The notes under the pieces are model-generated. The model did not search any database. It saw nothing but the letters and a program-made list of their open reading frames with translations, and was not told where the DNA came from. A program made the translations under genes and the position numbers. Positions 31,039 through 46,529 of a DNA stretch of 64,000 bases are shown here, piece after piece. The DNA is from Dehalococcoidia bacterium. GTDB lineage: Bacteria; Chloroflexota; Dehalococcoidia; GIF9; UBA5629. The DNA is taken from contig JBAZEK010000001.1 of the NCBI GenBank assembly GCA_041653995.1, positions 1,030,613 to 1,094,612 on the forward strand, given 5' to 3'. Every line of letters starts with the position of its first letter. The first letter of the stretch is position 1.

Positions 31039-31275
31039 TTACATGATGTAGGGCGTGCGGCAGCATTTAAGTGCAACACGATGAGAACATATGGTGGGCG
31101 ATACTGGATTTGAACCAGTGACCCCCTGTGTGTAAGACAGGTAAAAACCTTTAATTGACTGGAGCTTATTGATAATCTCTAGGGAAGCCTTACGTTGTCC
31201 TGAAAGAATCATGCTCAAATAGCTTTTACTGATACCTAATTCTTTGGCTAATTGACTCTGTGTTAACTTTTTCAT
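31039..31275 (-). CDS. XRE-family HTH protein whose C-terminal codons read through the tRNA-derived att repeat
   Basis: LTQSQLAKELGISKSYLSMILSGQRK HTH; last ~20 codons (GVTGSNPVSPTI) overlie the 51-bp tRNA-Val fragment. Confidence 0.55.
   Translation of the reverse strand: MKKLTQSQLAKELGISKSYLSMILSGQRKASLEIINKLQSIKGFYLSYTQGVTGSNPVSPTICSHRVALKCCRTPYIM
31092..31142. repeat. att-site direct repeat: 51-bp copy of tRNA-Val(TAC) 3' end
   Basis: TGGTGGGCGATACTGGATTTGAACCAGTGACCCCCTGTGTGTAAGACAGGT identical to 43144..43194. Confidence 0.85.
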
Positions 31276-31530
31276 TTATTTCACCCGCCTTTTTATATCC
31301 TTTAAGCCTGCGTTTCCAATTATCGGTAAATATTGGTACGACTTCTTCTGTCTTCCTTTTGCACTAAAGTTCCCCTGTGGTTTTCTCACAAAATGACAGT
31401 CTACCTCATCAATAAGCCATCTCCGTCCAATGTAGAGTGCATTAATCCGTCCCTCTGACAAAAGCTTACGAACCCGTCTCTCAGATATACCAAGCCTTTC
31501 TGCTGCCTGTGGAACCGTAAGTAGTTTCAT
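31276..31530 (-). CDS. excisionase-family (HTH_17/MerR-like) DNA-binding protein
   Basis: 84 aa; LLTVPQAAERLGISERRVRKLLSEGRINALYIGRRWLI matches excisionase/Xis HTH pattern; adjacent to attL. Confidence 0.6.
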   Translation of the reverse strand: MKLLTVPQAAERLGISERRVRKLLSEGRINALYIGRRWLIDEVDCHFVRKPQGNFSAKGRQKKSYQYLPIIGNAGLKDIKRRVK

Positions 31531-31823
31531 TCAATTACCTTCTATCATTTTAATATTATACCGTTATCGGAATAATGTCAAGTATAATTACAAGCTAAAA
31601 TATCTTTTCTTTTTGCCGCATTTTTCCATAATACTCCGCAGAATTTTTTCAAATCGTATTTAAATTAAGTTTTAAAAGTTCAAGAATGAGGGTTTATAAT
31701 ATGCATATAAACTGGAAGCATATGGAAGGAAGCACGATAGAAAGTTAGAACGTAAGCAAGCGAGTAAGCAAGAAGGAAAGCAGGCGAGCAGGGAAGCTAT
31801 GTTGCTTTCCTTTTTTTAATTTT

Positions 31824-32057
31824 TTGATTCGGAGGTACGAAATGACTGAAAACAAGGTCAAGGAAATTAGATTGAGCAAATGCATGAATCAGAGAGAACT
31901 GGCAGAGAGAGCTCATATCTGTCAAACAGCTATTTCAGACATTGAAAGGGGGGTAAGACTACCATGGAAAGCAGCGTCTGAAAAGCTTGCTATTGCATTG
32001 GGTGTCACAATCGAGGAATTATTCCCAAACAATCTTAGGGGAGGTAAAAATTGCTAA
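31824..32057 (+). CDS. XRE-family HTH regulator
   Basis: 77 aa; MNQRELAERAHICQTAISDIERG. Confidence 0.65.
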   Translation: MIRRYEMTENKVKEIRLSKCMNQRELAERAHICQTAISDIERGVRLPWKAASEKLAIALGVTIEELFPNNLRGGKNC

Positions 32058-32398
32058 ACAAAAATAGAACGTCTTTAAAGCTGGGAAACAAGAAAGTAGG
32101 CTACTTTGAAGGTGATAAATTCATCAAACCCGTAATCGGCTCAAAGCATCTGCTGAAATTTCCTTACCAAGCTTGGGCAATTGATGCCAAAGTATTTGAC
32201 GATGAAATTAAACCTAACGCCAATTATTTTATTGTAAGAGATAGGGAGTCGGGGCTTGAATATAGTTGTACGGTAAAGGACTTCGACAATTTAAAGCGAA
32301 CCATTAACAGAGGGTATGGTAAGCAGTACAGTCTATCTCTAAAACATTGGAAAATAGCAGCTATGGAAGACGCTGAAGCTTCCAGTAACGCAACATAG
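32051..32398 (+). CDS. hypothetical protein
   Basis: 115 aa ORF on island, AT-rich codon usage consistent with neighbours. Confidence 0.4.
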   Translation: MLNKNRTSLKLGNKKVGYFEGDKFIKPVIGSKHLLKFPYQAWAIDAKVFDDEIKPNANYFIVRDRESGLEYSCTVKDFDNLKRTINRGYGKQYSLSLKHWKIAAMEDAEASSNAT

Positions 32399-32579
32399 AG
32401 TAGTGCAGCACCCGTTTTAGTAGTTGGAGGTGCTGTGTAAAAATGGTATTAGACAGAAGGAAAAGGCTGATGGAGGAGGGTATGACTCGCCATGATATTT
32501 CAGGAGCCTACTTATTTAATCAATTCAAGTGAGTTGTAATAGATGGTCATACCTATTCGATGGTCTTAAGGAGGAAAAT

Positions 32580-33026
32580 ATGATTCAGGGCATAGAAAAT
32601 TATATAAATTTAACAGATACCAAGAATGAATGGGCAAAATTTCTAAATGGCTTTGAATGGCATTGGTTCTTTACTCTCACATTTGATAAAAAGGTAAGTG
32701 ATGACTTGGCATACAAGCAATTCTTTAGGTGGAAGAATTGGATAAAGAGTTCAGTAGGACACAGAATTTTCTATCTAATTATTCCTGAGCGTCCCAAGTA
32801 TAAGGGAGATAATACTCATATTCATGGATTTCTTAATGGTGTTGAAAATGAGAAACCCTACATATGGAGAAGGAAATGGGAGGCAATGGCAGGCTTTTCT
32901 CGGATTCAACCCTATGATAGTTCAAGGGGTGCAAGCTATTATCTAGCGGATAAAATTGTATTTAAAGAAGAGGATATTTATCATAGCAAAGACCTAAATA
33001 TGATAAAGATAAATACACTCAATTAA
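32580..33026 (+). CDS. putative rolling-circle replication initiator (HUH endonuclease, Rep-like)
   Basis: ATG 32580 after AAGGAGG; motif I FFTLTF, motif II (HUH) THIHGFL, candidate motif III Y-x-x-K in ASYYLADKIVFK. Confidence 0.5.
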   Translation: MIQGIENYINLTDTKNEWAKFLNGFEWHWFFTLTFDKKVSDDLAYKQFFRWKNWIKSSVGHRIFYLIIPERPKYKGDNTHIHGFLNGVENEKPYIWRRKWEAMAGFSRIQPYDSSRGASYYLADKIVFKEEDIYHSKDLNMIKINTLN

Positions 33027-33094
33027 ATCCATTATATATATCAATATGATTATTACTACAAACATCAATATTTATTTCTTTTACTTTTACTTTT

Positions 33095-33150
33095 CCTTAT
33101 GCCCCTTTTTTATTTTTGCCCCAAATATGAATTAAATATAAATATCTACA
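33095..33150. repeat. iteron-like repeat cluster downstream of rep (GCCCCTTTTTTATTTTTGCCCC ... AAATATAAATATCTACAA)
   Basis: GGGGCAAAAA(T/G)A(A/G)AAAAAGGGG-type motif recurs inverted at ~40250..40275; AAATATAAATATCTACAA recurs at 34199..34216. Confidence 0.45.
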
Positions 33151-33231
33151 ATTAATTGCATAAAATTGGGGCATAGGGAAAAAATCACATATAAAATTCA
33201 AATAGAAAGTCAGGAGGAATCAGTAAGTAAA

Positions 33232-33858
33232 ATGAGTACAATAATTTCAAAACCTACGACAATTCAAATTAGCATGCTTGGGACACATGCCTTTTGTGAA
33301 TATAGGATATATCTTGAGCTTGTTATGGGTTTTAAAGCACGAGGTACACCAGAAATGCTTGAAGGCACAAAAGCACACTCAAGGATAAATACGATGGCTT
33401 TCTTAACGAGAGATTCAAATATTAGCATTGAGGATGCGTTGCTCCAAGCAGAGTCAGACGGAAGAGAAATAACAAAAAGGAACGTACGGGTAACAGGTAA
33501 GATACTACGTGGGAATATCGATGAAATTCACATTGGGCCAAAAGAAATTACGATTATAGATGATAAAAAATGGGCAGAGCATTATCCATCATATAAAAAT
33601 CAAGTCTTTGGCTATTGCCTTGCGTTTAAAGAACAATACAACCCAAAGCAGCCGATATACGGTGCCATAAAGAATTATCAGTCTGGAAAGGAAGTCTGGA
33701 AAAAACAATTTTCAGTTTTGGAAGAGGAATATATAAACGGCATTGTTCAAAGAATACTGGGGATAATTCGTGAGGATATCACTCCAAAACCCATTGGTGT
33801 TAGAGAAGTATGCTGGCAATGTGGATTTAAAAATTACTGCAATGTAAGGACACGATAG
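33232..33858 (+). CDS. Cas4-like/DUF83 PD-(D/E)xK nuclease with 4-Cys Fe-S site
   Basis: ATG 33232 after AGGAGG; N-terminal Cys (HAFCEY), IDEI...IIDDKK (D/ExK), QVFGY (QhxxY), C-terminal CWQCGFKNYC (CxxCx5C). Confidence 0.6.
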   Translation: MSTIISKPTTIQISMLGTHAFCEYRIYLELVMGFKARGTPEMLEGTKAHSRINTMAFLTRDSNISIEDALLQAESDGREITKRNVRVTGKILRGNIDEIHIGPKEITIIDDKKWAEHYPSYKNQVFGYCLAFKEQYNPKQPIYGAIKNYQSGKEVWKKQFSVLEEEYINGIVQRILGIIREDITPKPIGVREVCWQCGFKNYCNVRTR

Positions 33859-33895
33859 CAAAATGGTGGAAAAAGGAAAAAGAAGAAACTAACTA

Positions 33896-34159
33896 CTATA
33901 CTGCCTTGAAACCCACAATAAAGTAATTTGATTTATCAAATATAAGTCTTATCTTGTGTTCTGAATTATCCTTGCCGGCCAGGGCAATTAAGAATGATAG
34001 CTTCTTTGGATTAGTAACTGTCTTAGAAATTGGACGATGGACAATAAAACCCTCAAGTTCAATCTTCACATATCTACAGCCAGTCTTCGGATATGGCAAA
34101 TCCTTCTCTTCCACAATATCTATATATTTGCATATGGCTGAATTTGTCCTTCTTGGCAT
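33896..34159 (-). CDS. hypothetical protein
   Basis: 87 aa ORF on island; no motifs. Confidence 0.3.
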   Translation of the reverse strand: MPRRTNSAICKYIDIVEEKDLPYPKTGCRYVKIELEGFIVHRPISKTVTNPKKLSFLIALAGKDNSEHKIRLIFDKSNYFIVGFKAV

Positions 34160-34526
34160 ATTTATTTCCTTTCTTCCCTTTTCCGCTAAATTTAAACTAA
34201 ATATAAATATCTACAAATTATTATATTAAATCCACAACCAAATTTGAATATGAATGCCACAGATAAATGGCGGAAAAGAAAAAGAGTCTTAGAGATATTA
34301 TTATTTTGTATTATTTTCTTTAATAGTCAGATAGCAAGTGTGGCTAAGGGCAATTTTACCTTTAAAAATATTGAATCTGGTTGTCATTTGTCTAGTGCTT
34401 TAAAAATAGAAAACCTTCACGTGTGAGAAATGCCAGTAGCACGTGTATTAGAAGCGGCATTTTAAATAAAATCTTAGCCCAAAGTCATAGCAAATATAGA
34501 TTGTTGCATGCGTCCTTTTAATACGA

Positions 34527-34610
34527 TAGAATACGGTCAATGTAGTGAGGCTGGGGAGATGAAATATTTACTTGCTTGTTTCATAGCACTATTCGTTATA
34601 TCAGCCTGTG
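34527..34610 (+). repeat. 84-bp module (5' UTR + RBS + lipoprotein signal peptide MKYLLACFIALFVISAC) duplicated identically at 40435..40518
   Basis: exact identity of ATAGAATACGGTCAATGTAGTGAGGCTGGGGAGATGAAATATTTACTTGCTTGTTTCATAGCACTATTCGTTATATCAGCCTG; weaker similarity extends ~80 bp upstream. Confidence 0.8.
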
Positions 34611-36502
34611 CATCTCAAGTCCATGTTGGTGACCAAGCTCCAAACTTCACACTGACAGATATAAATGGTAAACGTATTAGTCTGCAAGATTTTCGTGGCA
34701 AGCAGGTTGTTCTTTATCTTTGGTTTTTATATTGTCCTGAATGTACAGAAGACCTTGCTGAGATTCAAGAGTTGAATAATAATAGTGACGAAAGAGTCAT
34801 TAAGTTCCTAACCATTAACCCAGAAAATTCATCAAAAGACGTTGCGGATTTTTTCACTAAAAATGGATATAGTTTCCCAGTTTTGTTTGATTTAGATGGA
34901 AGTATTTACAAGCAATATAATTTACGACCTCGGTCTGCACCCTACACAATAATTATTGCTCCTGATGGAAAGATTAACAATATTACAGTGGGGAATCTTC
35001 ATTATCAAGGTGGTTTAAAACGGTTAATTGGAGATAACGTAACATCCTTCAGTCCAAGTGCACAAACTCAAAAGACTCCAATAATTATCGTACCCAGTTT
35101 ACAATCTCATGGTGTCGATGAACTTGCTTATGTATCTAGCGAAACGAACACGAACTCTATATATGTCGTGAATGCAAACGGGGAATATATTGCTAACTCA
35201 TCTGGAAAAATGGATGCATTATACCATGTTAGTTGGTCGCCAAACGGAGATAAGATTATTTTTGAAGTGGTTAAAGATATCAATATAGACCAGAGAAATA
35301 TGACCCTTATTTCTTCGTCTGATATTTATTCTCTTGATATTAAAGACCATGAAGAGCGTAGACTTACTTCAAATTATCCGTATAGCAATTGTTCTCCCAC
35401 ATGGATTGAAGACGATAAAATCGTATTTTATTCAACAAGGGGAAGTTCGTATGGCAGTTTTTTACAAAATATATACATCATGAACGCAGACGGAAGTAAT
35501 CAGATAAATTTAACTAATTGTGCAGAGAATGTACCTATGGTATTAGAACCAATATTATCGCCTGACCACTTGTCTGCAGCATATATTACGGGTAAGTTAT
35601 TCGATGAAGATATATATGTGATAAACCTAGTGAATGGAAATAAATTTGAAATAGGCCATAATCCAACATTTGCACCCTGGACTTGGTGGTCTCCAAACAG
35701 TAAACAGATAGCGTATATATCTGCCTCTCTAAACGGGGGGCCTGAATCATTTTATCTCTACGATGTCGAAAAACAGAAACCGATAAAATACTATGATAGC
35801 CCTCAATCTTATTCTATTATGGAAATAGCATGGTCGCCAGACAGTAACAAAGTCGCTATTTTTGAAAAACCGCAGAGCTTGTATGTTTTAGATTGTCTGA
35901 GTTCCAAGTTTACAAAACTTGATGGGATATGTGACTGGGTAGTAGAGATGAAATGGATACCTAATAACCAACAAATAGCCATTATTGGTGACAGGTTTAC
36001 AAACAGAAACTTGTATGTAATTGATATTGGTGAGCAGAGTAAGCATAAAATCAATCCAGAGGGAACGGCAGTCGAGTCGTATCGATGGTCAACTGATAAT
36101 ACAAGAATCATTTATTGCTTAGATGATGGATATCTTTACACAACTTTCCTACCCAACTTAAATACCATAAAACTAATGCAACTTAATAAAAATACGATAA
36201 AAGGGTTAGCTTTGTCACCAGACGGTTTATTAATCGCTGTTGCTCTGAGTGACGATACTCTAACTGTAATTTCATTAAACAATAACAAGGTGTGCTTGTT
36301 AACTAATGATTATTACAATATTGGAGCAATTTCTTGGTCGCAAAACAGTAACATACTTGCATTTGAATACGGAACTTTATGGGATAGTCCGTTTGTATGC
36401 AGTAACATTCAAATCATCAATTTCGAAAACGAGGAACAGTTCATTAAATTAGATAAACCAATCTCAGGACGCTCTCCAATTTGGGCGAGAAAGGAAAAAT
36501 AA
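34559..36502 (+). CDS. exported lipoprotein: TlpA/ResA-like thioredoxin-fold domain (CPEC) + TolB-like beta-propeller
   Basis: lipobox ISAC; APNFTLTDINGKRISLQDFRGKQVVLYLWFLYCPEC redoxin; C-terminal repeated W-S-P-D/N-G/S blades (SWSPNGDKIIF, AWSPDSNKVAIF, RWSTDNTRIIY, ALSPDGLLIAV, SWSQNSNILAF). Confidence 0.75.
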   Translation: MKYLLACFIALFVISACASQVHVGDQAPNFTLTDINGKRISLQDFRGKQVVLYLWFLYCPECTEDLAEIQELNNNSDERVIKFLTINPENSSKDVADFFTKNGYSFPVLFDLDGSIYKQYNLRPRSAPYTIIIAPDGKINNITVGNLHYQGGLKRLIGDNVTSFSPSAQTQKTPIIIVPSLQSHGVDELAYVSSETNTNSIYVVNANGEYIANSSGKMDALYHVSWSPNGDKIIFEVVKDINIDQRNMTLISSSDIYSLDIKDHEERRLTSNYPYSNCSPTWIEDDKIVFYSTRGSSYGSFLQNIYIMNADGSNQINLTNCAENVPMVLEPILSPDHLSAAYITGKLFDEDIYVINLVNGNKFEIGHNPTFAPWTWWSPNSKQIAYISASLNGGPESFYLYDVEKQKPIKYYDSPQSYSIMEIAWSPDSNKVAIFEKPQSLYVLDCLSSKFTKLDGICDWVVEMKWIPNNQQIAIIGDRFTNRNLYVIDIGEQSKHKINPEGTAVESYRWSTDNTRIIYCLDDGYLYTTFLPNLNTIKLMQLNKNTIKGLALSPDGLLIAVALSDDTLTVISLNNNKVCLLTNDYYNIGAISWSQNSNILAFEYGTLWDSPFVCSNIQIINFENEEQFIKLDKPISGRSPIWARKEK

Positions 36503-36527
36503 GAAATTTCAAAAATGGAGACTGAAT

Positions 36528-36824
36528 ATGACTGGCGAATTGGGAAATTTTGTTATCGTCATGGGATTACCCTGTTTAGGAGCGCTGTTAATAGCTTTTT
36601 GTTCATTACCAACCGATAAATGGACAATAAAACACACTTTTATGTTGGTGGGAACTTCACTAATTTTTATTAGCTTTATTTTGCAAGCATATCAGATTAT
36701 TGATAAATACCCTGATAAAAATGAATATATATTTGGATGGTGGATTGTCGGTTTAGCTACCGTTATCATGGCTATAATAGGGCAAATTATTAGAATCAGA
36801 TACGGTAAAAGTTGGTTCCAATAG
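36528..36824 (+). CDS. small 3-TM membrane protein
   Basis: 98 aa hydrophobic ORF directly after lipoprotein gene. Confidence 0.4.
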   Translation: MTGELGNFVIVMGLPCLGALLIAFCSLPTDKWTIKHTFMLVGTSLIFISFILQAYQIIDKYPDKNEYIFGWWIVGLATVIMAIIGQIIRIRYGKSWFQ

Positions 36825-36920
36825 GATAATAAAATAGTGGGAAAGGAAAGAGAAGGAAATTTAATTAGCTATCTATATTTAAGATAAGAGTGACTTATAG
36901 AACTTCATTGAGGTTGGGAG

Positions 36921-37451
36921 ATGCAACAACAGTATCAATGCCCTAATTGTAGGTATCCAGTTGCTTATGGGAATAATTTCTGTGGACATTGTAGACAACA
37001 ACTAATCTGGCAACAATTAATGCCACCTTCACCACCAGTACACCATCAGCAAACACCACAAGGCATTATTGGGAAATCACACGAGCAAAACACTTCTGGA
37101 CAAGGTGGTCAATCAATAATACCCGATGAAAAGCGTATTAAACTTCCAAAACTCAATATTCGTTTCGACTTTGAGTTGTTTCAAGCAATTGAGGACAATG
37201 ACCGTAAACTGGCTGAACAGCTCAAAGCAAAATATGGGGATGATGTTTATAATTCCAATTTTTATAACCTGCTTAGTATCGAAGACGCTAACTCAGTAGA
37301 CTCACTTCATCTTAAACTAGTATCAGTTGAAAAAATGAATTTCAATGATATTTTATGCGAAAGTATCAAAATAGAGACTGAAAAAGTACGCAAAAGGATA
37401 GAGGAGCTTGAGAATATAAAAAATTTACGCAACGGGATTGAGGAAGTGTAA
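36921..37451 (+). CDS. zinc-ribbon (MQQQYQCPNC...CGHC) + coiled-coil protein
   Basis: 176 aa; N-terminal CPNC-x11-CGHC; member of the window-wide MQQxYxCPxC family. Confidence 0.55.
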   Translation: MQQQYQCPNCRYPVAYGNNFCGHCRQQLIWQQLMPPSPPVHHQQTPQGIIGKSHEQNTSGQGGQSIIPDEKRIKLPKLNIRFDFELFQAIEDNDRKLAEQLKAKYGDDVYNSNFYNLLSIEDANSVDSLHLKLVSVEKMNFNDILCESIKIETEKVRKRIEELENIKNLRNGIEEV

Positions 37452-37461
37452 GGAACTGACT

Positions 37462-37505
37462 AAACCCCTGAAACTGGCAGCTCGAGTAAGAAAAATGGCG
37501 GGAAA
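37462..37505 (+). repeat. ~44-bp intergenic repeat (AACCCCTGAAACTGGCAGCTCGAGTAAGAAAAATGGCGG), second copy 39411..39455
   Basis: ~90% identity; each sits between a stop codon and next start; in second copy ATGGCGG is the start of the HEPN-like gene. Confidence 0.6.
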
Positions 37506-37511
37506 GAAAAT

Positions 37512-39368
37512 TTGATTTATATGTTATGGGATGATACGTATCGTAAAGATGCAGCGGAGTATGAAATCTATCTGCGTATGCATCATAAAGAAAAAAACGA
37601 TTACGAGAAGCTTTTATCTAATCTTGAACGTGAGTGGTCAGAAAAATCAGTTAAAGAAGAAAACTACATATCGCTTAAAAAGGAATACACAGCGAAACTA
37701 CAGGAAACAAAGAAGTACATTTCAAAGCTGAAATTCCAGATTACAGCACTCATTAAAAAATGTAATAAAGACATAGATAAAATCGATAGCCAAATTGAAC
37801 AAATTAAATTGCGGCACAAAGTTGGTGAATATTCAGAGGAGAAACTCAAAGAACTATTATCACCATCTGAAACAGAAAGAAGGCAATTTGAATCCTTAAT
37901 AATCGAACTGAAACGCATACATGGCTTGAAATATATACCTAAACCAACTACCGATGATGTTGTATCAGAAACAGAACCGAGTCAGCCTAGAAGGTCTCCT
38001 ATCCCAACGTCATCTACTTCTATTTCAACAGCTGAAGAGCAAGCCCCCGAAATATCAGCACCAATGAGTTTTGAAGAACCGCCTCCTATTTTGGTACCTG
38101 CTGTATTTAAAAAGTCTTCACCTGTAAGAGTAAAGAAGAGTCTGTGGATTATGGCTTCGATTACTATGTTTGTAATATTAATTCTCTGTTTTGTTATTTG
38201 GAATATAGAAGTGCATAAAAAGGTAATCCCTCAGATTGGAGACCAAGCTCCAAACTTCTCTCTCCCAGATATGAATGGTAAAACGGTTAACCTTCAGGAC
38301 TTTCACGGAAAGGGTGTTGTTCTTTACCTTTGGGACACATCATGTCCTTACTGCAAAAATGACCTTAGCTGGATAAATGAATTAAATGGCTGCACCTATG
38401 ACGAAGCAATAATATTTTTAACTATTAATATCTCAGATTCACGTGGAACAGCTATTAAATATTTTGAGGAAAATGGATATAGTATTCCCGTTTTAAATGA
38501 TATGCGTGGGACGGTTATTAAGCAGTATGTAAAGTACACCTTAGGCCATACGTATCCAGATACTATTCTTATTGGTTCAAATGGCCAGATTCGTAATGTA
38601 AAAGTCGGGCCCTTCCAAAGCAAGACTGAATTAAAAACATTTATAGAATCAGGTTTAACCCCCCGTTGGGATAATACTCCTCCACAAATTTATGATATTA
38701 ATCTTTCTAAGGCCTCTATTTTGAGTTGGAAAACGGATGAGGAAACACATAGTAATATACAAGGGTTTCGTAATAGTGTCGGAGGTGCTGGAGTCACTCT
38801 TGGTGAAAATTGGACAAGATATCATAGCGTAAATGAAACAGTTTGCACTAATGGCTACTATGACCAAATTCAAATCAACTCGTATGACCGCTGCGGTAAT
38901 TCTGCTTCAAAAGTTTTTACACTGCCCAACTGCATAAATTTAGGTTGTAGAGCTCCTGATTTCACAGCAACTTCAACTAATAATCAGGATATAACGCTGT
39001 CCGCAGTACCTAGCAAAATGACTCTACTTCACTTCTGGCTACTCGGATGTGGTGCATGTGAAAAGGAACTTCCATTAATCCAAAAACTATATTATGAGCG
39101 TCCTAGAGAAGAACTTGAGATATTGGCTGTGAATGTTAGAGGTGACATATACAGCATAAATGACTTCGTTACTGCAAATGGTTATAGATTAATTATTTTA
39201 CTAGATACAGAAGGCATAATAGATGCCGCCTATCATAATCCAAGGTTCCCCACAACCTTTTTATTGGATTGCAATAAGGTAATTATTAACAAGCATGACG
39301 GTGCCTTTCAAAATTATGAAGAAATCGTTGATTTTGTAGGTCAGTATCCAAAACTTCCTGGTAAATAG
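37512..39368 (+). CDS. bitopic protein: cytoplasmic coiled-coil, one TM helix, two periplasmic TlpA-like thioredoxin-fold domains (CPYC, CGAC)
   Basis: 618 aa; TM SLWIMASITMFVILILCFVIW; APNFSLPDMNGKTVNLQDFHGKGVVLYLWDTSCPYC; second redoxin LLHFWLLGCGACEKEL. Confidence 0.7.
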   Translation: MIYMLWDDTYRKDAAEYEIYLRMHHKEKNDYEKLLSNLEREWSEKSVKEENYISLKKEYTAKLQETKKYISKLKFQITALIKKCNKDIDKIDSQIEQIKLRHKVGEYSEEKLKELLSPSETERRQFESLIIELKRIHGLKYIPKPTTDDVVSETEPSQPRRSPIPTSSTSISTAEEQAPEISAPMSFEEPPPILVPAVFKKSSPVRVKKSLWIMASITMFVILILCFVIWNIEVHKKVIPQIGDQAPNFSLPDMNGKTVNLQDFHGKGVVLYLWDTSCPYCKNDLSWINELNGCTYDEAIIFLTINISDSRGTAIKYFEENGYSIPVLNDMRGTVIKQYVKYTLGHTYPDTILIGSNGQIRNVKVGPFQSKTELKTFIESGLTPRWDNTPPQIYDINLSKASILSWKTDEETHSNIQGFRNSVGGAGVTLGENWTRYHSVNETVCTNGYYDQIQINSYDRCGNSASKVFTLPNCINLGCRAPDFTATSTNNQDITLSAVPSKMTLLHFWLLGCGACEKELPLIQKLYYERPREELEILAVNVRGDIYSINDFVTANGYRLIILLDTEGIIDAAYHNPRFPTTFLLDCNKVIINKHDGAFQNYEEIVDFVGQYPKLPGK

Positions 39369-39410
39369 ATAATTTCTTGATATTAAGAAATCGAGGTGTA
39401 CTGGTCTGAA

Positions 39411-39455
39411 CCCCTGAAACTGGACAGCTTGAGTAAGAAAAATGGCGGAAAAAGA
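39411..39455 (+). repeat. second copy of ~44-bp intergenic repeat
   Basis: AACCCCTGAAACTGGACAGCTTGAGTAAGAAAAATGGCGG. Confidence 0.6.
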
Positions 39456-39951
39456 AATGCAACAGGAGGAGCATCCCCTAAATATGGGGAAGCTACTTGT
39501 GAATTTCCAATCACTTGAGATAGCTCTCCGTCTATTTCTTTATAATGATGAAATTGCCTCTAGAGTTTCATCTCCTCAGGCGGTAAACCTAAATGCTATG
39601 AATGCGGGGGATATAGTAGCTGAAAATGCGTTCACAAACTATGATAGTCTAAGTCAACTCATTGATAAATATAATAACCATCCCAACATCATATCGACAG
39701 GTCTAACCATTGATAAGACTTTAGTGGACATACGTGATGCAATAGCTCATGGAAGAGTCGCTGGAGTCACTCCTTTGCTTGTGCCTCCTTTAAAACTAAT
39801 GAAGTTTGATAAACCAAAGAACAAAAGTGTGAAAGTAACATTTAGCGTTTTATTGACAAGGGAATGGTTCATTCTAGAGATGGCTAAGGTTCAAGATGCA
39901 GTTTTTAAAGTCTTTCAAGCTATCCAAATAATACAGAGTGCTAAGACATAA
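39442..39951 (+). CDS. hypothetical protein with HEPN-like R-x4-H motif
   Basis: 169 aa; IRDAIAHGR contains Rx4H; predicted all-alpha. Confidence 0.4.
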   Translation: MAEKEMQQEEHPLNMGKLLVNFQSLEIALRLFLYNDEIASRVSSPQAVNLNAMNAGDIVAENAFTNYDSLSQLIDKYNNHPNIISTGLTIDKTLVDIRDAIAHGRVAGVTPLLVPPLKLMKFDKPKNKSVKVTFSVLLTREWFILEMAKVQDAVFKVFQAIQIIQSAKT

Positions 39952-40434
39952 GTGGTGCCCTCTGAAATCGCTCTGAGGGGCTGAAATCAGGGTGTTGCAT
40001 ATTGAACATGACGGATTCCACCTGTCATTACTATTCCAGCTTAATTAGAGCCTTTAAAGTATTAAACAGTAAAGGTAATAACTCTACTTCCTTTCCCTTA
40101 AGCCCCTTTATTATTTCTTCGCCTAAGTTTCCGTTCAAGTGAATTATGTCGCTTTTAAGACCAACAAACGCTGGTACACCATAAACACGTTTACGTTCAA
40201 GCCAATTATGTCGTTTTGCATATATTATTTCCAGCTTAAATTAACTACAGAAAAATGGGGCAAAAAGAGAAAAAGGGGAATTATATATCAATTTATTGTC
40301 AATAATCTTTGAAATACTATTACTTCATCTGAGAGAGATGCCAGCAGCTAAGTGTAACGGCATTGAATTTTAAATAACTTCTCAGCCCAAAGTGGTAACG
40401 CATATAGGTCTATTGCATAAGTATTGTTCATATA

Positions 40435-40518
40435 ATAGAATACGGTCAATGTAGTGAGGCTGGGGAGATGAAATATTTACTTGCTTGTTTCATAGCACTA
40501 TTCGTTATATCAGCCTGC
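40435..40518 (+). repeat. second copy of 84-bp 5'UTR+signal-peptide module
   Basis: identical to 34527..34610. Confidence 0.8.
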
Positions 40519-41880
40519 ACACCAAATAACTCAATAAACAACGTTGAGACATTCCCAAAAATCGGAGATAAGATACCGAATATCTCATGGACTACTATCA
40601 ATGGCGAAAAGATTGATTTAAATCAGTTTAAAGGCAGTTGGGTGCTACTATGCTATTGGTGCTCTTGCCCTGTACATAGGAATGACATACTGACTATTCA
40701 TAATGTTTATGATTCATTATATGATAAGAATCTCGATGTCATTGTAATTAATGATACTTATGCTCAGATAGAATTAGAGGCATTTGGAAAACAAAACAAT
40801 GTACCGTTTTATTTAATTGAAGATAATCAAAAAACAATTGATAAACTTGTACCATTTGGCAACAGGCCAATATATCTCTTAATTGATGGGAGTGGGGATT
40901 TACATGCTATCGAAATAGGTACATTTCGCTCTGGCGAAAATAGCGTTAACAATGTAATCAATTTCCTTGATGATGTGATTAAGGTAAGAATCGATAATAT
41001 TACAGTCACTAATATTACTTCAAATAGGGCAACTGTGAGATGGAAAACAGATAAGGCAGTACCGTGTTGGTTGGAAATTCACCCCCAAGGTGACCCAATC
41101 GGAAAGTGCATCGGCAAGACAAATCCAAATACATTTCATGAATTGATATTAAACTGTAATCCCAACACAGCTTACACTTTTAACGTAGCTGCTAGTGGAT
41201 TAGATAATTCTTTAATTAACGATGCAAGCAATCGTAGTAGTGAATTTTCATTTCAAACATTACCAAATTGGGTTACTTCTTTATATGAGGTTGACTCTAC
41301 TAAACCAAAAATATCGAATGTTAAAGTTTCTATAATTACAGATACGAGTGCAGAGTTATATTGGGAAACTGATGTGGAAGCTCAAGTCACCGCTACAATC
41401 TGTAAATATATATCCAGTACTGATGCGCCCTTAAACTCCCAGAAAATTGATTTTATAGAAGACATATATTTTACAAAGAAACATAGCTTTACAATTAGCT
41501 CTCTTGAGCCAAGACGATTATATGACGTTGGTTTAAATGCCAAAGATAGAATGGGAAGGGTTGCCGATTACAGTGTCGAATTTTTAACACAACCTTCAAA
41601 TTATACTCACGGAGCGAAGATATCCAATATATCTTTATATGACATCACGGACAGGAGTGCTAAATTAAAATGGTCAACTGACAAGTCAGTATGGAGTTCA
41701 GCCTGCTATAAATATGAGTGCTCTTCTGGGGACATCAACACTGAGCATTCATATACACTATCCTATGGTCTGGAACCCGATACAGAATACTGGGTGCAAA
41801 TTCTAGCACATGGGGAATCGGTATCTGATGTATTCAACTTCAGAACATTAAAGACAACAGATAAGGTAGATATGAAATGA
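40468..41880 (+). CDS. exported lipoprotein: thioredoxin-fold domain (CYWCSC) + three fibronectin-III/purple-acid-phosphatase-N-like domains
   Basis: 470 aa; same signal peptide as 34559 gene; Fn3-like segments TNITSNRATVRWKTD, VSIITDTSAELYWETD, ISLYDITDRSAKLKWSTD. Confidence 0.7.
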   Translation: MKYLLACFIALFVISACTPNNSINNVETFPKIGDKIPNISWTTINGEKIDLNQFKGSWVLLCYWCSCPVHRNDILTIHNVYDSLYDKNLDVIVINDTYAQIELEAFGKQNNVPFYLIEDNQKTIDKLVPFGNRPIYLLIDGSGDLHAIEIGTFRSGENSVNNVINFLDDVIKVRIDNITVTNITSNRATVRWKTDKAVPCWLEIHPQGDPIGKCIGKTNPNTFHELILNCNPNTAYTFNVAASGLDNSLINDASNRSSEFSFQTLPNWVTSLYEVDSTKPKISNVKVSIITDTSAELYWETDVEAQVTATICKYISSTDAPLNSQKIDFIEDIYFTKKHSFTISSLEPRRLYDVGLNAKDRMGRVADYSVEFLTQPSNYTHGAKISNISLYDITDRSAKLKWSTDKSVWSSACYKYECSSGDINTEHSYTLSYGLEPDTEYWVQILAHGESVSDVFNFRTLKTTDKVDMK

Positions 41881-41907
41881 AAGAAAATCAAAAGGGAGGT
41901 AAAGAAG

Positions 41908-42084
41908 ATGGTAGCAAATAAGAAGAAGTATTATGCAGGGGAATCAGCTAAAGTCTCTGGCAAATACAACGAATGCAGATTGGGCACAGGCAAAACAGGA
42001 GTAACAGCAAATGTCAAGAAGGGGGATACACTCCCACCACATAAAATAGGAGCTCATTGGGAGTTATCAAGAAAATCTAAATAA
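41908..42084 (+). CDS. small basic protein (58 aa), hypothetical
   Basis: strong RBS AAGGGAGG 8 nt upstream; MVANKKKYYAGESAKVSGKYNECRLGTGKTG...; not in ORF track (<60 aa). Confidence 0.35.
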   Translation: MVANKKKYYAGESAKVSGKYNECRLGTGKTGVTANVKKGDTLPPHKIGAHWELSRKSK

Positions 42085-42316
42085 TATAGACATATTTAAG
42101 AAAGTGGTGACTTATAAAACTTCATGCTGTCCTGAAAGCTGAATGACCGAGTATATCTTTGCACCATAATAAAGTTCAGCCAAGGCACCGTTAAAATGTA
42201 CTACAGAATTGTTCTAAAGGGCCAAAATGGGGTATATAATATAGGGCATGACAGATTCTTCCTGCCTGAGCTTTTCAAGCTTAATTATTGAACAAATAAC
42301 TATGAAATCCTGATTG

Positions 42317-43081
42317 CTAACGAGGTAACTGATTTGAGCCGTTCACATCTTTGTAGACTTGAAGAGCATCCTCAAAGGATAAAGATTTTGAATACCTTTC
42401 AACCATAGAAATGCTTTCCCAACCGCCTAGATTTTGCACAATACGAGTGGATAACCCAGACTTAATATTGTGAATACAAAACCCTCTTCTATAGCTATGG
42501 GCGTTGGACTTAATGCCAGTTTCTTTAGACAATCGTTTAAGCATAGTTTTAATGCCAGCTCTTGATATTTCAAAACTATCATGCTCATCAAACCACTTTC
42601 CGATAACACCATTACCAGCTAAAGCCTTACGATACTTGTTACCCTTGCCCAGAATGGTTACTGTACCTTCACCCCAGTCAAAGTCTTTAGCGTGCACATT
42701 AGCACATTCACTCAGCCTTACTCCTGAGTACCATAAGAAACTAATTAATGCTCTATCACGTTCACAATGACAATGATTTATCAGAACTTCTAATTGTTCT
42801 TTTGATACCGCAGGCAATAGCTTCTTTTGAATTTTTGGGCTAGGAACTTTGTCAATAACCTTGTCGTGAATATAGCTATTGCTGTATAGCCATGAAATGA
42901 GAGTTTTGAGAGCTTGATAGAATCTTGCTTTGCCATTATGACAGGTAAGTGATTTTAGATAAGCATTAACTCCATCTGGACTTAGGGGATAACCAATAAA
43001 ATGAGTTAAAGTATATTCGTAAAATTCAATAGTTCGCTTACTACAACCATCGGGGCGAGAAGAAATAAACTTCTCCAACAA
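42317..43081 (-). CDS. tyrosine recombinase/phage-type integrase (compact XerC/D-like)
   Basis: 254 aa; N-terminal SAM-like domain, catalytic R...HSYRRGF...LGGW...Y (R-H-R-Y); adjacent to tRNA-Val target. Confidence 0.85.
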   Translation of the reverse strand: MLEKFISSRPDGCSKRTIEFYEYTLTHFIGYPLSPDGVNAYLKSLTCHNGKARFYQALKTLISWLYSNSYIHDKVIDKVPSPKIQKKLLPAVSKEQLEVLINHCHCERDRALISFLWYSGVRLSECANVHAKDFDWGEGTVTILGKGNKYRKALAGNGVIGKWFDEHDSFEISRAGIKTMLKRLSKETGIKSNAHSYRRGFCIHNIKSGLSTRIVQNLGGWESISMVERYSKSLSFEDALQVYKDVNGSNQLPR

Positions 43082-43143
43082 TTCTTTTGTGAACTTTTTG
43101 TAGCTAACTTGTGAATATTGTGAAATTGAGCTGTAGTTTTCTT

Positions 43144-43219
43144 TGGTGGGCGATACTGGATTTGAACCAGTGACCCCCTGTGTGTAAGACAGGTGCTCTA
43201 ACCGCTGAGCTAATCGCCC
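43144..43219 (-). tRNA. tRNA-Val (anticodon UAC); integration target
   Basis: rc GGGCGATTAGCTCAGCGGTTAGAGCACCTGTCTTACACACAGGGGGTCACTGGTTCAAATCCAGTATCGCCCACCA; encoded CCA. Confidence 0.9.
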
Positions 43220-44586: not shown

Positions 44587-45612
44587 ATGCAGCAATGGAT
44601 AAGATGCACCAGATGCGGCGCCAATAATGCTCCCGGACAGAAATTCTGTAACGCATGCGGTACACCCCTGCCGACCGTCTGCCCCAATTGCGGAACCCCG
44701 GCAGGTCCCGGCAGCACTTTCTGCGCCAGGTGCGGCATGACATTCAGCGGTATGCCCCAGCAGACCGGATATTACCCTCCGCAGCAGCCGGGATATCCTC
44801 AGCAACCTGGCTATCCGCAGCAACCGGCATATCCGCAACAGCCGGGCTATCCTCAGCAACCGGGCTATCCTCAGCAACCGGGCTATCCGCAACAGCCGGG
44901 ATACCCGCAACAGCCTGGATATCCGCAGCAGCCCCCCGGCTACCCGCCTCAACAGACCGGCTATTATCCTCCGCAGCAGCCGGGTTATCCTCCACAGCCG
45001 GGATATCCGCAGCAACCGCCCGGTTATCCGCCGCAGCCGGGATATCCGCAACAGCCCGGCTATCCCCAGCAACCGGGATATCCGCCGGGCTATCCTCCGC
45101 AGCAGCCGCCACGCGGAGCGTATCCGCCGGGCGCAAGGCCACCCCAGCAAGGCGGCGGCAAAGGCATGCTCATATTGCTGCTGGTTGTTCTGATTGCCGG
45201 CCTGGCAGGCTTCGGTTACTGGGCTTACAGCCAGGGCTACCTCAAGGGCATACTTAACTTCGGCAGCGATAACACCACCACCTCCACAGGGAAACAGAAG
45301 GACACTGTGCCGCCCACCATCAGCGGCGTAGAAGTTAGCGCCAAGGCCATAAACGAAGTCGGCATTATCTGGAAGACGGACAAGCCATCCAGTTCTCAGG
45401 TGGAATGGGGTCCCAAGGGATCGTTCGGCAACAAGACGACACTACAGGATGACCCCGTGAGCGGTACCAGCATCGGTGTCACCGATCACGGGGTTATCGT
45501 CAAGGGATTAACGGCAAATACTGAATACCAGTACCGTGTGTTATCACATACCGACGGCAACGTTGACGCCGTATCCGCCACCAATACTTTCACGACACCT
45601 TCGGCAGATTAA
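44587..45612 (+). CDS. double zinc-ribbon – PQ-rich (PGYPQQ x ~20) – TM – Fn3-like domain protein
   Basis: 341 aa; [44 protein letters not shown]; [23 protein letters not shown]; C-terminal [17 protein letters not shown]...TEYQYRV purple-acid-phosphatase-N/Fn3-like. Confidence 0.65.
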
Positions 45613-45644
45613 CCCTCCTTTTCGCTGCGTTTACAGATTTTCTA

Positions 45645-46529
45645 ATGTATCAATCAACAGTACCCTGCCCTAAATGCGGCGCGCAGAACCTGCGGGGACA
45701 GTGGGTATGCGCGTACTGCGGAAATACGCTTGTCGTTTATTGTCCATCCTGCCATACCGGCAACGCCATCGACAGCCAGTATTGCCACGCCTGCCATGCA
45801 GTTCTCGCGTATACCGGCGTTCCGCCGGCTCAACCACAGTATCAACCCCAACCCCAGCAGCCTCAACCATATCCGCAGTACCCGCAATATCCTCCCGGGC
45901 AAACTGACCAGGGCCAGTACCCTCCGCAGTATCCACCCTACCCTCCACCCGGTTATCCACCACAGCAACCACCCTACCCGGACTACCAGGCCGGATACGG
46001 CCAGCCCGGCGATTATAAACCATACTCGGTTCACGGCGGCGAAGCCTACGCCGGAGGCGGGCTGGACGGCCTGATCGACAGGCTCAAAGAGTTCGTGCGC
46101 AATACCAATCCCATTCTCCTCTCTTCGCTGGTGGTGCTGGTAGTCGGTCTGACCATCTTCCTCATCCTGGCCTTCCAGTTCGGCTGGATCAAGACGGGTT
46201 CGGCGCCCAAAGTAGAAACAGTTAAAGATACCACAGCTCCTGTGATAACTTATTTAACTTATGAGCCCGGTGAAAATAGAAGCATTATAATAATTTGGGC
46301 AACCAATGAGCCAGCAAGTACGCGGGTCGAGTGGGGTATCGCACCTGTTTTCAACCAATTCACACTTATAGAAAACGATCCCCAAGTTGGCCAAGGTACA
46401 CTTTCACATAGGGTAACATTGACTAACCTGCTACCAAACACCAGCTATATTTACCGCGCAATATCATATGACAAAGCAGGGAACAAATGCATGAGTCCTA
46501 CTATGCCATTCCAAACTACGAACTACTAG
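45645..46529 (+). CDS. paralogous double zinc-ribbon – PQY-rich – TM – Fn3-like protein
   Basis: 294 aa; CPKCGAQNLRGQWVCAYCGNTLVVYCPSCHTGNAIDSQYCHAC; same architecture as upstream gene. Confidence 0.65.
   Translation: MYQSTVPCPKCGAQNLRGQWVCAYCGNTLVVYCPSCHTGNAIDSQYCHACHAVLAYTGVPPAQPQYQPQPQQPQPYPQYPQYPPGQTDQGQYPPQYPPYPPPGYPPQQPPYPDYQAGYGQPGDYKPYSVHGGEAYAGGGLDGLIDRLKEFVRNTNPILLSSLVVLVVGLTIFLILAFQFGWIKTGSAPKVETVKDTTAPVITYLTYEPGENRSIIIIWATNEPASTRVEWGIAPVFNQFTLIENDPQVGQGTLSHRVTLTNLLPNTSYIYRAISYDKAGNKCMSPTMPFQTTNY

Follow-up and report, generated by a model that had tools for sequence, protein, structure and literature searches.

pSAM2 integrates in a tRNA gene, has the genes int, xis and repSA, and uses rolling-circle replication (RCR) (PMC2440964). 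In the pSAM2-type AICEs, the HUH initiator replicates the excised circle. A second point of comparison is offered by the rudiviruses, archaeal viruses with linear dsDNA, hairpin ends and a 'flip-flop' mechanism, whose SIRV1 ORF119 is a very small stand-alone HUH protein (PDB 2x3g; PMC4187194) and which conserve a Cas4-like nuclease of the RecB family, exemplified by SIRV2 gp19 (PMC3158340). Solo-Cas4 proteins are reported to be frequent in many Chloroflexi, where they form a monophyletic group, and MGEs often recruit cas4 for a function that is unknown (PMC5704561). Two further points of comparison are the small RCR plasmids with hairpin double-strand origins and the Pfam family PF23343, a domain named after ORF2 of plectroviruses and the gene II protein of inoviruses.

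The locus lies in a 64,000-nt window (the whole stretch of DNA that was analysed) of a Dehalococcoidia chromosome, where a 12.1-kb island (31092-43194) occupies tRNA-Val. The island has a GC content of 0.34-0.40 against 0.48-0.60 in its flanks, and a repeat search of the window places a 51-nt direct repeat, identical at 51/51 positions, at its two ends (Table 1). An Rfam scan reports tRNAs only, among them a weak match over attL (31095-31160). The pSAM2-type AICEs (PMC2440964), at roughly 11 kb, share with it the position in a tRNA 3' end, a tyrosine integrase, an Xis-type protein and an HUH RCR initiator, although for the initiator a role in replicating the excised circle is only proposed here. 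The first-pass annotation had described a tRNA-integrated element, and the att repeats at tRNA-Val, the tyrosine integrase and the excisionase-type HTH protein bear this out. The larger island ORFs contain only redoxin, beta-propeller, FN3, zinc-ribbon and HTH domains in Pfam and PHROG scans; three HTH proteins are encoded, and secreted redoxin-fusion proteins make up the cargo. We conclude that this is a real and fairly ordinary plasmid-like integrative element.

Table 1. Features of the integrated element and its borders (window coordinates; a dot marks features given no strand).
Feature	Position	Strand	Evidence and remarks
HTH_3 protein, Cro/CI-type, 78 aa	31039-31275	-	PF01381, 41.7 bits; 3' end of gene crosses attL
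attL	31092-31142	.	Exact copy of the tRNA-Val(tac) 3' part, 51 nt; left end of island; 100% identical to 43144-43194
HTH_17 DNA-binding protein, excisionase family, 84 aa	31276-31530	-	PF12728, 40.7 bits; TIGR01764 'excise', 40.7 against a cut-off of 28.8
24-nt motif copy	31604-31627	-	PWM 29.2 bits; upstream of TTGACA-17-TATAAT promoter-like site of HTH_17 gene
Second HTH_3 regulator, 77 aa	31824-32057	+	PF01381, 39.5 bits
Conserved leader upstream of rep, with possible 16-codon uORF (32482-32532, MTRHDISGAYLFNQFK)	32400-32579	+	Invariant blocks in comparison with L001, L004, L042 and L043
Rep, 148-aa stand-alone HUH endonuclease	32580-33026	+	PF23343; conserved catalytic residues; fold
rep-cas4 non-coding spacer, candidate origin and/or control region	33027-33231	.	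59-70% identical to relatives
Conserved block just past rep stop: ACTACAAAC, or GTTTGTAGT on the minus strand	33055-33063	-	A.ACTACA.AC invariant in the window, L001, L004 and L002
Inverted-repeat module 1	33086-33185	.	T-rich arm with GCCCC 33090-33113; AT-rich spacer; A-rich arm with GGGGC 33160-33183; PWM 24.1 and 23.8 bits
Cas4-family PD-(D/E)xK Fe-S nuclease, 208 aa, solo/MGE type	33232-33858	+	Motifs; PF01930; fold
24-nt motif copy	33857-33880	+	PWM 27.5 bits; directly after cas4 stop
Inverted-repeat module 2, architecture as module 1	34165-34284	.	T-rich arm with CCGC; second 18-mer 34199-34216; A-rich arm 34261-34284; PWM 29.3 bits
Inverted-repeat module 3	40091-40272	.	T-rich arm with GCCCC 40091-40114, PWM 15.2; A-rich arm with GGGGC 40249-40272, PWM 30.5 (second site of the first-pass annotation)
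Tyrosine integrase, 254 aa, Xer-sized, adjoining attR	42317-43081	-	PF00589, 76.2 bits; phrog_216 and phrog_1 integrase
tRNA-Val(tac)	43144-43219	-	ARAGORN; Rfam 74.2 bits; its 3' 51 nt (43144-43194) are attR

The element nevertheless departs from the AICEs in several respects. No FtsK/SpoIIIE-type Tra translocase and no spread genes were found among its larger ORFs in the Pfam and PHROG scans, Kor is likewise lacking, and its host belongs to the Chloroflexota rather than the Actinomycetota. Its Rep is a stand-alone protein that falls in PF23343 and not in PF20199, and a Cas4-like nuclease forms part of its conserved backbone. From the rudiviruses it differs in having a bacterial host, in being an integrated and presumably circular element, and in having no virion genes. 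The small RCR plasmids provide homologous Reps on circles of 0.95-2.1 kb with a conserved loop, whereas the window element sits in the chromosome, is ten times their size and carries a candidate hairpin whose loop is long and composite in place of one of 13-15 nt.

Both ORFs of the proposed replication module, a HUH Rep-like initiator and a Cas4-like Fe-S nuclease, are present as first described. The rep gene starts with an ATG just downstream of AAGGAGGAAAAT, and homologues start at the same residue. Rep passes PF23343 (REP_ORF2-G2P) by a marginal 0.2 bits (28.0 against a gathering threshold of 27.8), and the residues expected of an HUH nuclease are conserved throughout its family. In an alignment of 70 relatives, W27, T34, F35, E70, H80, H82, W100, G105 and Y121 are near-invariant. 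Two of the motifs that had been read from the letters hold up there: FFTLTF (motif I, residues 30-35, on model strand 29-35), with T34 and F35 at least 90% conserved, and HIHGF (motif II, residues 80-84), with H80 and H82 conserved to the same degree. The conserved E70 could serve as a third metal ligand. The Y-x-x-K assigned as motif III does not stand, since the sole literal YxxK in the protein (YHSK, 133-136) is not conserved; the catalytic tyrosine candidate is instead Y121 in GASYYLADK, which is at least 90% conserved and sits at the start of model helix 123-128. The motif reads YxxxK in the clade of the window Rep and YxxK in the wider family.

The predicted structure of Rep (pLDDT 91.3) has the alpha/beta architecture and antiparallel sheet that HUH proteins share with Rep nuclease domains. 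Its nearest structure is the rudivirus Rep SIRV1 ORF119 at 16% identity, which is also the top PDB match of the Rep sequence profile. A direct phmmer search of PDB sequences with Rep gave no match, no PHROG or NCBIfam model matched the protein, and PADLOC assigned neither Rep nor the small ORFs to a defence system. On its profile, its conserved residues and its modelled fold, ORF 32580-33026 is a HUH Rep-type initiator.

The nature of the wider family is informative about what such a protein does. A word-indexed search recovered only two Rep homologues, and an exhaustive search was needed to obtain 632 representative sequences, mostly of 130-230 aa. PF23343 is matched by 66 of 70 relatives (best E 4.6e-14), the RepSA family of pSAM2 by 11 of 70 and Helitron_like_N by 4 of 70. 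Sixteen contigs with assembler-type terminal overlaps represent circular units of 954-2061 nt that encode Rep, and on such 1-2 kb replicons the homologue is the sole sizeable gene. At about 25 Rep-homologue loci a perfect hairpin is found, its stem 11-19 bp long and its loop, of 13-15 nt, of the form ..CCATCCTTGTAG. Slid controls pair 38-52% of cells, against 84% here, and none of 500 shuffles matches the observed compensatory changes; other mini-circles in the family have different loops. Weak matches extend to annotated Reps of small cultured plasmids from Bacillus, Brevibacterium and Macrococcoides, and distant relatives adjoin tyrosine or serine recombinases in many phyla. A tblastn search of PLSDB and INPHARED with Rep returned no match. 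Because homologues occur on 1-2 kb circles with a hairpin origin, on small plasmids and beside integrases, we regard the family as one of replication initiators. The first-pass annotation had left open a plasmid or a virus as the source of the element and had proposed a search for free circular relatives. A plasmid source fits the occurrence of homologous Reps on these small replicons and plasmids. There is no evidence for a viral source, as neither virion genes nor viral relatives were found. Homologous Reps do occur on the 16 circular contigs, but the excised form of the element itself was not seen: its predicted attP junction (TGTAGTTTTCTT, the 51-nt att and AAAAACCTTTAA) is absent from viral contigs, and locus L013 is ambiguous.

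The adjacent nuclease gene starts with an ATG preceded by AGGAGGA, again at the residue where homologues start. Its product scores 31 bits against PF01930 (threshold 22.7), the best fold match of its model is Cas4, and the hallmarks listed for it at first sight (N-terminal Cys, D/ExK, QhxxY and CxxCx5C) are present and conserved. Specifically, GxxD(97)E, D110xK112, Q124xxxY128 and C194xxC197x5C203 are invariant in 10 homologues, and C22 is found in all 8 that are full-length. The four cysteines (C22 and those of CxxCx5C) are predicted to hold a 4Fe-4S cluster, in segments where the model is poor. In its RecB motifs, QhxxY and cysteines, the protein resembles the solo and MGE-borne Cas4 proteins (PF01930, COG1468; PMC5704561, PMC3466216). 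It differs from them in being fixed beside a HUH Rep in an integrative element, an arrangement for which our literature search found no description. It scores 51.9 against the TIGR00372 equivalog, below the cut-off of 65. Its neighbours are Rep and an 87-aa ORF, no cas1 or cas2 adjoins it, and the 64 kb contain no CRISPR array; this Cas4-family nuclease is not CRISPR-associated. A direct phmmer search of the PDB gave no match, the Cas4 profile gave only noise there, and no PHROG was matched. An alignment of Cas4 homologues likewise found nothing in viral contigs.

The two genes are adjacent in the window, on the P0005 contig and at loci L004-L008, L042 and L043. The pair occurs in at least five diverged elements of Dehalococcoidia type, where it is under purifying selection (dN/dS 0.13-0.25 for both genes). 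The backbone order HTH_17, Rep, Cas4 and, further on, integrase recurs in diverged relatives, with the HTH_17 gene kept in position and integrase homologues at the far end. Beyond the close clade the Rep-Cas4 linkage is absent, and locus L001 has Rep without Cas4 and only a fragment of the integrase; Rep function therefore does not depend on Cas4. At loci L011-L013, an IS stands in place of rep and cas4 is truncated.

We consider it probable, though by no means certain, that rep-cas4 is the replication module of a plasmid-like, integrative element of 12.1 kb that integrates and replicates in the manner of pSAM2. In such a scheme, the integrase and Xis would excise the element as a supercoiled circle, and Rep, using HUH-bound metal and Y121, would nick one strand in the conserved Rep-proximal region. 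The best nick-site candidate is module 1, whose apical loop would present TTGTAGATAT on the minus strand. The nick would prime RCR, such that the excised copy could be maintained or amplified before re-integration or transfer, as in pSAM2. By analogy, the Cas4-like enzyme may be a 5'-3' ssDNA exonuclease acting on displaced strands, 5' flaps or ends, and its work would lie in the processing or recombination of replication intermediates.

The spacer between rep and cas4 is 59-70% identical to relatives, compared with 31-39% at synonymous sites of the flanking genes, and this putative origin is the best candidate for one. The repeats flagged in the first-pass annotation are real: GGGGCAAAAA.A.AAAAAGGGG occurs at 33101-33122(-) with two mismatches and exactly at 40257-40278(+) (chance expectation 0.01), and AAATATAAATATCTACAA is found exactly at 33134 and 34199 (chance expectation 0.06). 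They are also not peculiar to this element, given that the spacer and its inverted pair are kept in related ones. They do not appear to be classical iterons. The GC-clamped A-tract is part of a 24-nt motif with about ten copies dispersed over 10 kb of the island, all of them intergenic, and near rep the copies form an inverted pair rather than a tandem, local array.

The spacer of module 1 holds the 18-mer at 33134-33151, which reads TTGTAGATAT... on the minus strand (33142-33151), and the fold of the module pairs 33091-33105 with 33167-33181 (minus-strand DNA dG -15 kcal/mol, z -2.1, 4/200 shuffles). The same inverted repeat is present in L001, L002, L042 and L044 with different GC cores. Folding of the whole rep-cas4 intergenic region gives no significant structure for either strand (z about -1). 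A nick site was sought within the repeats and none is established: the TTGTAG that the apical loop of module 1 shares with the mini-circle origin loops is only 6 nt long, and the island has 11 copies where about 8 are expected by chance. The island contains three similar inverted-repeat modules, the second of which the repeat search reports as a 70-nt repeat (74%), and this number is odd for a single origin. A MITE-like origin of the modules is unlikely for module 1, which occupies the same place in diverged relatives. A small hairpin drawn around ACTACAAAC proved neither stable nor significant, and the corresponding hairpins of L001 and L004 are not stable either; for this block we retain sequence conservation alone.

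An alternative to which we assign a substantial chance, somewhat short of even, is that these repeats are regulatory DNA (HTH operators, promoter-associated sites or UP-element-like A-tracts) and that Rep nicks at another place, such as the rep leader or ACTACA(A/G)AC. The 52 kb of host DNA contain no copy of the 24-nt motif, seven copies stand in the sense orientation upstream of a gene, and the TTGACA-17-TATAAT site directly downstream of the 31604 copy is a perfect one. The motif class is also intergenic in relatives, with variable GC cores, and the element encodes three HTH proteins. Yet the GC core of the motif is free to vary between copies and between elements, as is seldom seen in sequence-specific operators. 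Moreover, the paired inverted arms, with cores that change together, are kept at the rep-cas4 junction in six lineages, and the arm at 33090-33113 faces no gene. Other accounts of the motif were discarded: sigma-70 and terminator sites in the island scan are close to the shuffled expectation, and a role as an RBS or leader-peptide start (several copies include ATGG) is contradicted by the lack of an in-frame ORF at most copies. A regulatory role of the motif is at least as likely. It probably contributes to transcriptional control of the element's genes, either besides or instead of any origin function.

It is unlikely, in our judgement, that Rep serves mainly as a relaxase-like nickase for transfer of the excised circle by a helper, whether a conjugative or another DNA-transfer system, which would make the element an integrative mobilisable element and not an autonomous vegetative replicon. 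HUH chemistry is common to Reps and relaxases, RCR-Rep-like relaxases have been described for integrative mobilisable elements, and this element lacks genes for transfer. [quoted passage not shown] Against this, homologues of Rep are the only substantial gene of 1-2 kb circles and are found on small non-mobilisable plasmids, where they must replicate, and relaxase and T4SS families went unmatched in every search.

Still less probable is that the island is a decaying integrated plasmid in which rep and cas4 no longer serve replication. Decay is evident among relatives, as the loss of cas4 at L001 and the disrupted loci L011-L013 illustrate. However, the att repeats in the window remain identical, Rep, Cas4 and the integrase each retain every catalytic residue, dN/dS is about 0.15, and the rep-cas4 intergenic region is under constraint. 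We give similarly long odds to a more elaborate proposal, that Rep and the Cas4-like nuclease might form a coupled two-enzyme replication machine related to the ORF119-type Rep and gp19 of rudiviruses. The modules would then be Rep-recognised hairpins, several of which could be cut by Rep during replication or the shuffling of cargo cassettes. Finally, it is highly improbable that the element is a temperate ssDNA virus, a prophage of inovirus, plectrovirus or microvirus type that replicates by means of Rep. PF23343 does bear a phage-derived name, and a distant family member shares a circular contig of 6.4 kb with a Zot ATPase, but the island has no Zot, coat or capsid gene, no filamentous-phage morphogenesis genes, PHROG matches only to an integrase and one unknown, a Rep and Cas4 without relatives in viral contigs or phage genomes, and a cargo of redoxin fusions.

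Little is known of mobile elements in the Dehalococcoidia and other uncultured Chloroflexota, and the present analysis delineates a family of small elements that integrate in tRNA genes and share an Xis-like HTH protein, an HUH Rep of 148 aa, a nuclease of Cas4 type and an integrase of Xer size. Given this recognisable backbone, such elements would provide a group without genetic tools with a replicon and an integration system of natural origin. Furthermore, a nuclease fixed beside a rolling-circle initiator provides a testable context for the long-open role of solo and MGE-borne Cas4. The findings also connect a Pfam family that takes its name from proteins of filamentous phages with integrative elements across many phyla, and with circular replicons that are among the smallest seen in metagenomes.

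Between approximately 31 kb and 43 kb of the window, GC content falls to 0.34-0.40, compared with 0.48-0.60 on either side. The borders of this region are an exact direct repeat of 51 nt, and its right copy coincides with the 3' part of tRNA-Val(tac), which leads a cluster of four tRNA genes. A tyrosine recombinase gene adjoins this tRNA, and at the opposite end a Cro/CI-type HTH gene stands beside one for an 84-aa HTH_17 protein that passes the NCBIfam excisionase-family domain model (40.7 bits versus a cut-off of 28.8). The drop in GC content, the exact end repeats, the integrase and the excisionase-family protein show the island to be an integrated element of 12.1 kb with both ends intact, in agreement with the tRNA-integrated element proposed in the first-pass annotation. 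Pfam and PHROG scans of the larger island ORFs revealed no transfer or virion genes.

Coordinates (window positions) of features of the integrated element and its surroundings
Feature	Position	Strand	Details
attL	31092-31142		51-nt direct repeat
attR	43144-43194		51-nt direct repeat
Cro/CI-type HTH (HTH_3)	31039-31275	-	end opposite integrase
rep leader	32400-32579		
Possible short upstream ORF	32482-32532		MTRHDISGAYLFNQFK
Rep	32580-33026		148 aa
Cas4-like nuclease	33232-33858		208 aa
Tyrosine recombinase	42317-43081	-	254 aa; PF00589 76 bits; PHROG integrase; adjoins tRNA-Val
AhpC/TSA-redoxin fusion proteins	34508-36502, 37512-39368, 40468-41880		cargo
Zinc-ribbon proteins	44587-46529		host genes
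Module 1	33086-33185		inverted repeat; 18-mer in spacer
Module 2	34165-34284		inverted repeat; 18-mer in spacer
Module 3	40091-40272		inverted repeat
24-nt motif, strong	31604-31627	-	weight matrix
24-nt motif, strong	33090-33113	-	weight matrix
24-nt motif, strong	33160-33183	+	weight matrix
24-nt motif, strong	33857-33880	+	weight matrix
24-nt motif, strong	34261-34284	+	weight matrix
24-nt motif, strong	37489-37512	+	weight matrix
24-nt motif, strong	39436-39459	+	weight matrix
24-nt motif, strong	40249-40272	+	weight matrix
24-nt motif, weaker	40091-40114	-	weight matrix
24-nt motif, weaker	41887	+	weight matrix

The HTH_3 gene runs through attL, so the last ~30 C-terminal residues of its product come from tRNA-derived and host sequence, and this C-terminus would differ after excision. 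The cargo comprises three paralogous secreted or lipoprotein-like redoxin fusion proteins, whose fusion partners are a beta-propeller, a second redoxin domain or FN3 domains, and whose upstream regions and signal peptides are duplicated (repeats D1, D2 and D10). Related elements bear other cargo (zinc-ribbon/FN3). Beyond the right border, the products of two neighbouring host genes are zinc-ribbon proteins in which long PGYPQQ-type repeats (tandem repeat at 44778-45085) occur together with a membrane segment and a C-terminus resembling FN3; the cargo of the island and of its relatives likewise includes zinc-ribbon and FN3 domains.

The Rep ORF begins with an ATG preceded by a strong Shine-Dalgarno sequence, and its homologues share the start residue. 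Its sole Pfam match, PF23343 (REP_ORF2-G2P, 28.0 bits), lies only 0.2 bits above the gathering score, so that taken alone it is thin evidence. A word-indexed search returned only two Rep homologues; an exhaustive profile search recovered 632 cluster representatives (E<=1e-3), nearly all of 130-230 aa. When 70 of these 632 were aligned, W27, T34, F35, E70, H80, H82, W100, G105 and Y121 proved to be at least 90% conserved, corresponding to motif I (TLTF), an acidic residue, the HUH histidines and one tyrosine in GAxYYLxK. PF23343 is matched by 66 of the 70 relatives (best E 4.6e-14), RepSA of pSAM2 by 11 and Helitron_like_N by four, each of which is an HUH family. The marginal Pfam match and the residues conserved in the 70 relatives bear out the earlier assignment as an HUH Rep-like initiator, together with its motif I (T34/F35) and motif II (H80/H82). 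The literal YxxK at 133-136 that had been offered as motif III is not conserved; Y121 is conserved instead and is the predicted catalytic tyrosine. A tblastn search with the window Rep found nothing in PLSDB or phage genomes. The rep leader is conserved in four related loci (L001, L004, L042 and L043), and the possible upstream ORF within it, which reads MTIHHISGASIFN in L001, could control rep translation.

The neighbouring ORF passes PF01930 (31 bits versus 22.7) and PF12705, and its alignment to TIGR00372 cas4 covers the full length at 51.9 bits, under the equivalog cut-off of 65. The Cas4 hallmarks noted previously hold: D97/E98, D110-x-K112, Q124..Y128 and C194-xx-C197-x5-C203 are kept in all 10 homologues (50-66% identical), and every full-length homologue has the N-terminal cysteine. 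No cas1 or cas2 gene lies near this ORF and no CRISPR array is present in the 64-kb window; therefore, it is a solo/MGE-type Cas4. Genes of this type are reported to be widespread in Chloroflexi and to have been taken up frequently by mobile elements, where they have no assigned function (PMC5704561).

Contigs carrying Cas4 homologues (the P0005 contig, L004-L008, L042 and L043) share a recurring backbone of HTH_17 (-), a 148-150-aa PF23343 Rep (45-69% identical to the window Rep), a 206-211-aa Cas4, variable cargo and an integrase (-). The insertion tRNA differs among relatives (tRNA-Ala in L001 and L004, tRNA-Asn in L011-L013). Purifying selection acts on both rep and cas4 (dN/dS 0.13-0.25; synonymous sites are close to saturated), and by these comparisons the Rep-Cas4 pair constitutes a conserved module. 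Decayed versions include L001, which keeps Rep and has no Cas4, and L011-L013, which have an IS in place of Rep and a truncated Cas4. In L010 (1400-2884), a 494-aa protein without a Pfam or NCBIfam match precedes the Cas4 homologue where Rep otherwise stands, and may be a different replication protein. The L013 contig (8576 nt) has the same 27-nt tRNA-Asn att core at both ends and the length of the integrated element in L011 (7350-15933); the contig represents an excised circle or, alternatively, reflects a break in the assembly at the att repeat. Rep neighbourhoods of distant relatives lack the Rep-Cas4 linkage, which was found only in the close clade. We found no published description of this backbone in Dehalococcoidia, which, as literature coverage was incomplete, is absence of evidence only.

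Many very small contigs were among the matches of a metagenome scan for Rep relatives. The two ends of 16 of them overlap by 55, 95, 123 or 127 nt, as is typical of circular assembly (L017, L063, L084/L091, L085, L094/L095, L096, L097/L098, L101, L105, L106, L114/L117 and L126). These units of 954-2061 nt contain Rep and one or two small ORFs, and are among the smallest self-contained replicons to be expected. Most also bear a perfect covarying hairpin with the loop ..CCATCCTTGTAG. The largest, L106 (2061 nt, 62% GC), has a 273-aa ORF without a family match that could encode a capsid protein. Across ~25 small Rep loci, the Rep-sense strand carries a perfect hairpin whose stem measures 11-19 bp and whose loop reads C(A/T)(T/C)CCATCCTTGTAG. 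In an alignment of 22 loci, 84% of cells are paired, compared with 38-52% when the partner is slid; compensatory changes occur in three pairs (10 cells), and none of 500 shuffles matches the cell count or covariation score. Judged by this pattern, the hairpin is a textbook rolling-circle double-strand origin. One mini-circle Rep weakly matches annotated Reps from small non-mobilisable plasmids found in Bacillus, Brevibacterium and Macrococcoides; the Macrococcoides plasmid measures 1436 bp. Tiny circles, hairpin origins and cultured plasmids are three lines of evidence that members of the Rep family are replication initiators.

Both repeats reported downstream of rep exist and are non-random. 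Pairs of a dispersed 24-nt motif form three modules, in each of which a T-rich arm is followed, after an AT-rich spacer, by an A-rich arm. Modules 1 and 2 have in their spacers the 18-mer noted in the first-pass annotation. Module 1 lies between rep and cas4, and is kept at the same position in L001, L002/L004, L042 and L044; its GC cores vary from element to element yet agree between both arms, and the inverted repeats are better than 191-200 of 200 shuffles. The rep-cas4 spacer is 59-70% identical between elements, versus 31-39% at synonymous sites. As minus-strand DNA, module 1 is predicted to form a long composite hairpin (dG -15 kcal/mol, z -2.1, 4/200 shuffles) with a 16-nt apical loop beginning TTGTAGATAT. 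The reverse complement of the 18-mer is TTGTAGATATTTATATTT. The mini-circle origin loop, too, has TTGTAG as its invariant 3' end, and this hexamer lies within a hairpin loop (TGCCATCCATTTGTAGCTAT) in L014, the closest genomic relative. This sharing is suggestive only: the island holds 11 copies where ~8 are expected by chance, other mini-circles of the family have other loops, and identity between the compared Reps is only ~30%. Immediately after the rep stop codon comes another conserved block, ACTACA(A/G)AC, whose flanking hairpin proved unstable in a folding test. In our reading, the rep-cas4 spacer functions in cis and is the best origin candidate.

The 24-nt motif (consensus ~AGAAAAATGGCGGAAAAAGAAA) includes the GC-clamped A-tract as one of its forms. 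The weight matrix was built from seven of the strong copies, so the copy count is partly circular; the matrix has no hit in the 52 kb of host sequence, and the expectation for the island after shuffling is 0.27 copies. The motif is confined to intergenic regions of the island, with most copies upstream of a gene in sense orientation, and the same class with other GC cores occurs in L001, L002, L004, L042 and L043. It may be an operator, a UP-element-like sequence or a Rep site. As a whole, the dispersed motif looks more like transcriptional control DNA than iterons; of the proposed iterons or origin, the repeats and a candidate origin stand, and the iteron reading of the dispersed copies is the less likely one.

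The element resembles pSAM2-type elements in integration and replication mode. However, it does not qualify as an AICE, since it lacks a Tra translocase and its host belongs to a different phylum, and none of the tests applied marks it as a prophage. Of the suggested plasmid- or virus-derived origin, the plasmid side fits the presence of the Rep family on tiny circles and small plasmids; the viral side is disfavoured by the lack of virion genes. In structure, the modelled window Rep comes closest to the rudiviral Rep, and a Cas4-like nuclease is conserved in rudiviruses as well (PMC3158340), which offers a possible parallel.

Our proposal builds on an intact integrative element in which an HUH initiator and a Cas4-family nuclease are neighbours, separated by non-coding DNA under constraint. 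The integrase and Xis would excise the element, and Rep would then nick a hairpin-exposed site near its own gene to begin rolling-circle replication of the circle. Replication of this kind is documented for the excised circle of pSAM2, a tRNA-integrated element with int, xis and an RCR Rep (PMC2440964). In the weakest step, the Cas4-like exonuclease might process single-stranded or flapped intermediates; Cas4 proteins are 5'-3' ssDNA exonucleases bearing an Fe-S cluster (PMC3466216).

Distant Rep relatives adjoin tyrosine integrases or large serine recombinases in Acidobacteriota, Chloroflexia, Gemmatimonadota, Polyangia, Clostridia and others. In addition, a circular contig of 6443 nt from a Lachnospiraceae MAG (L034) encodes a distant Rep of the family and a Zot ATPase (PF05707), and is a small inovirus-like genome. 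Together with the circles and plasmids, these neighbourhoods indicate that the Rep family is used by plasmids and integrative elements as well as by filamentous phages.
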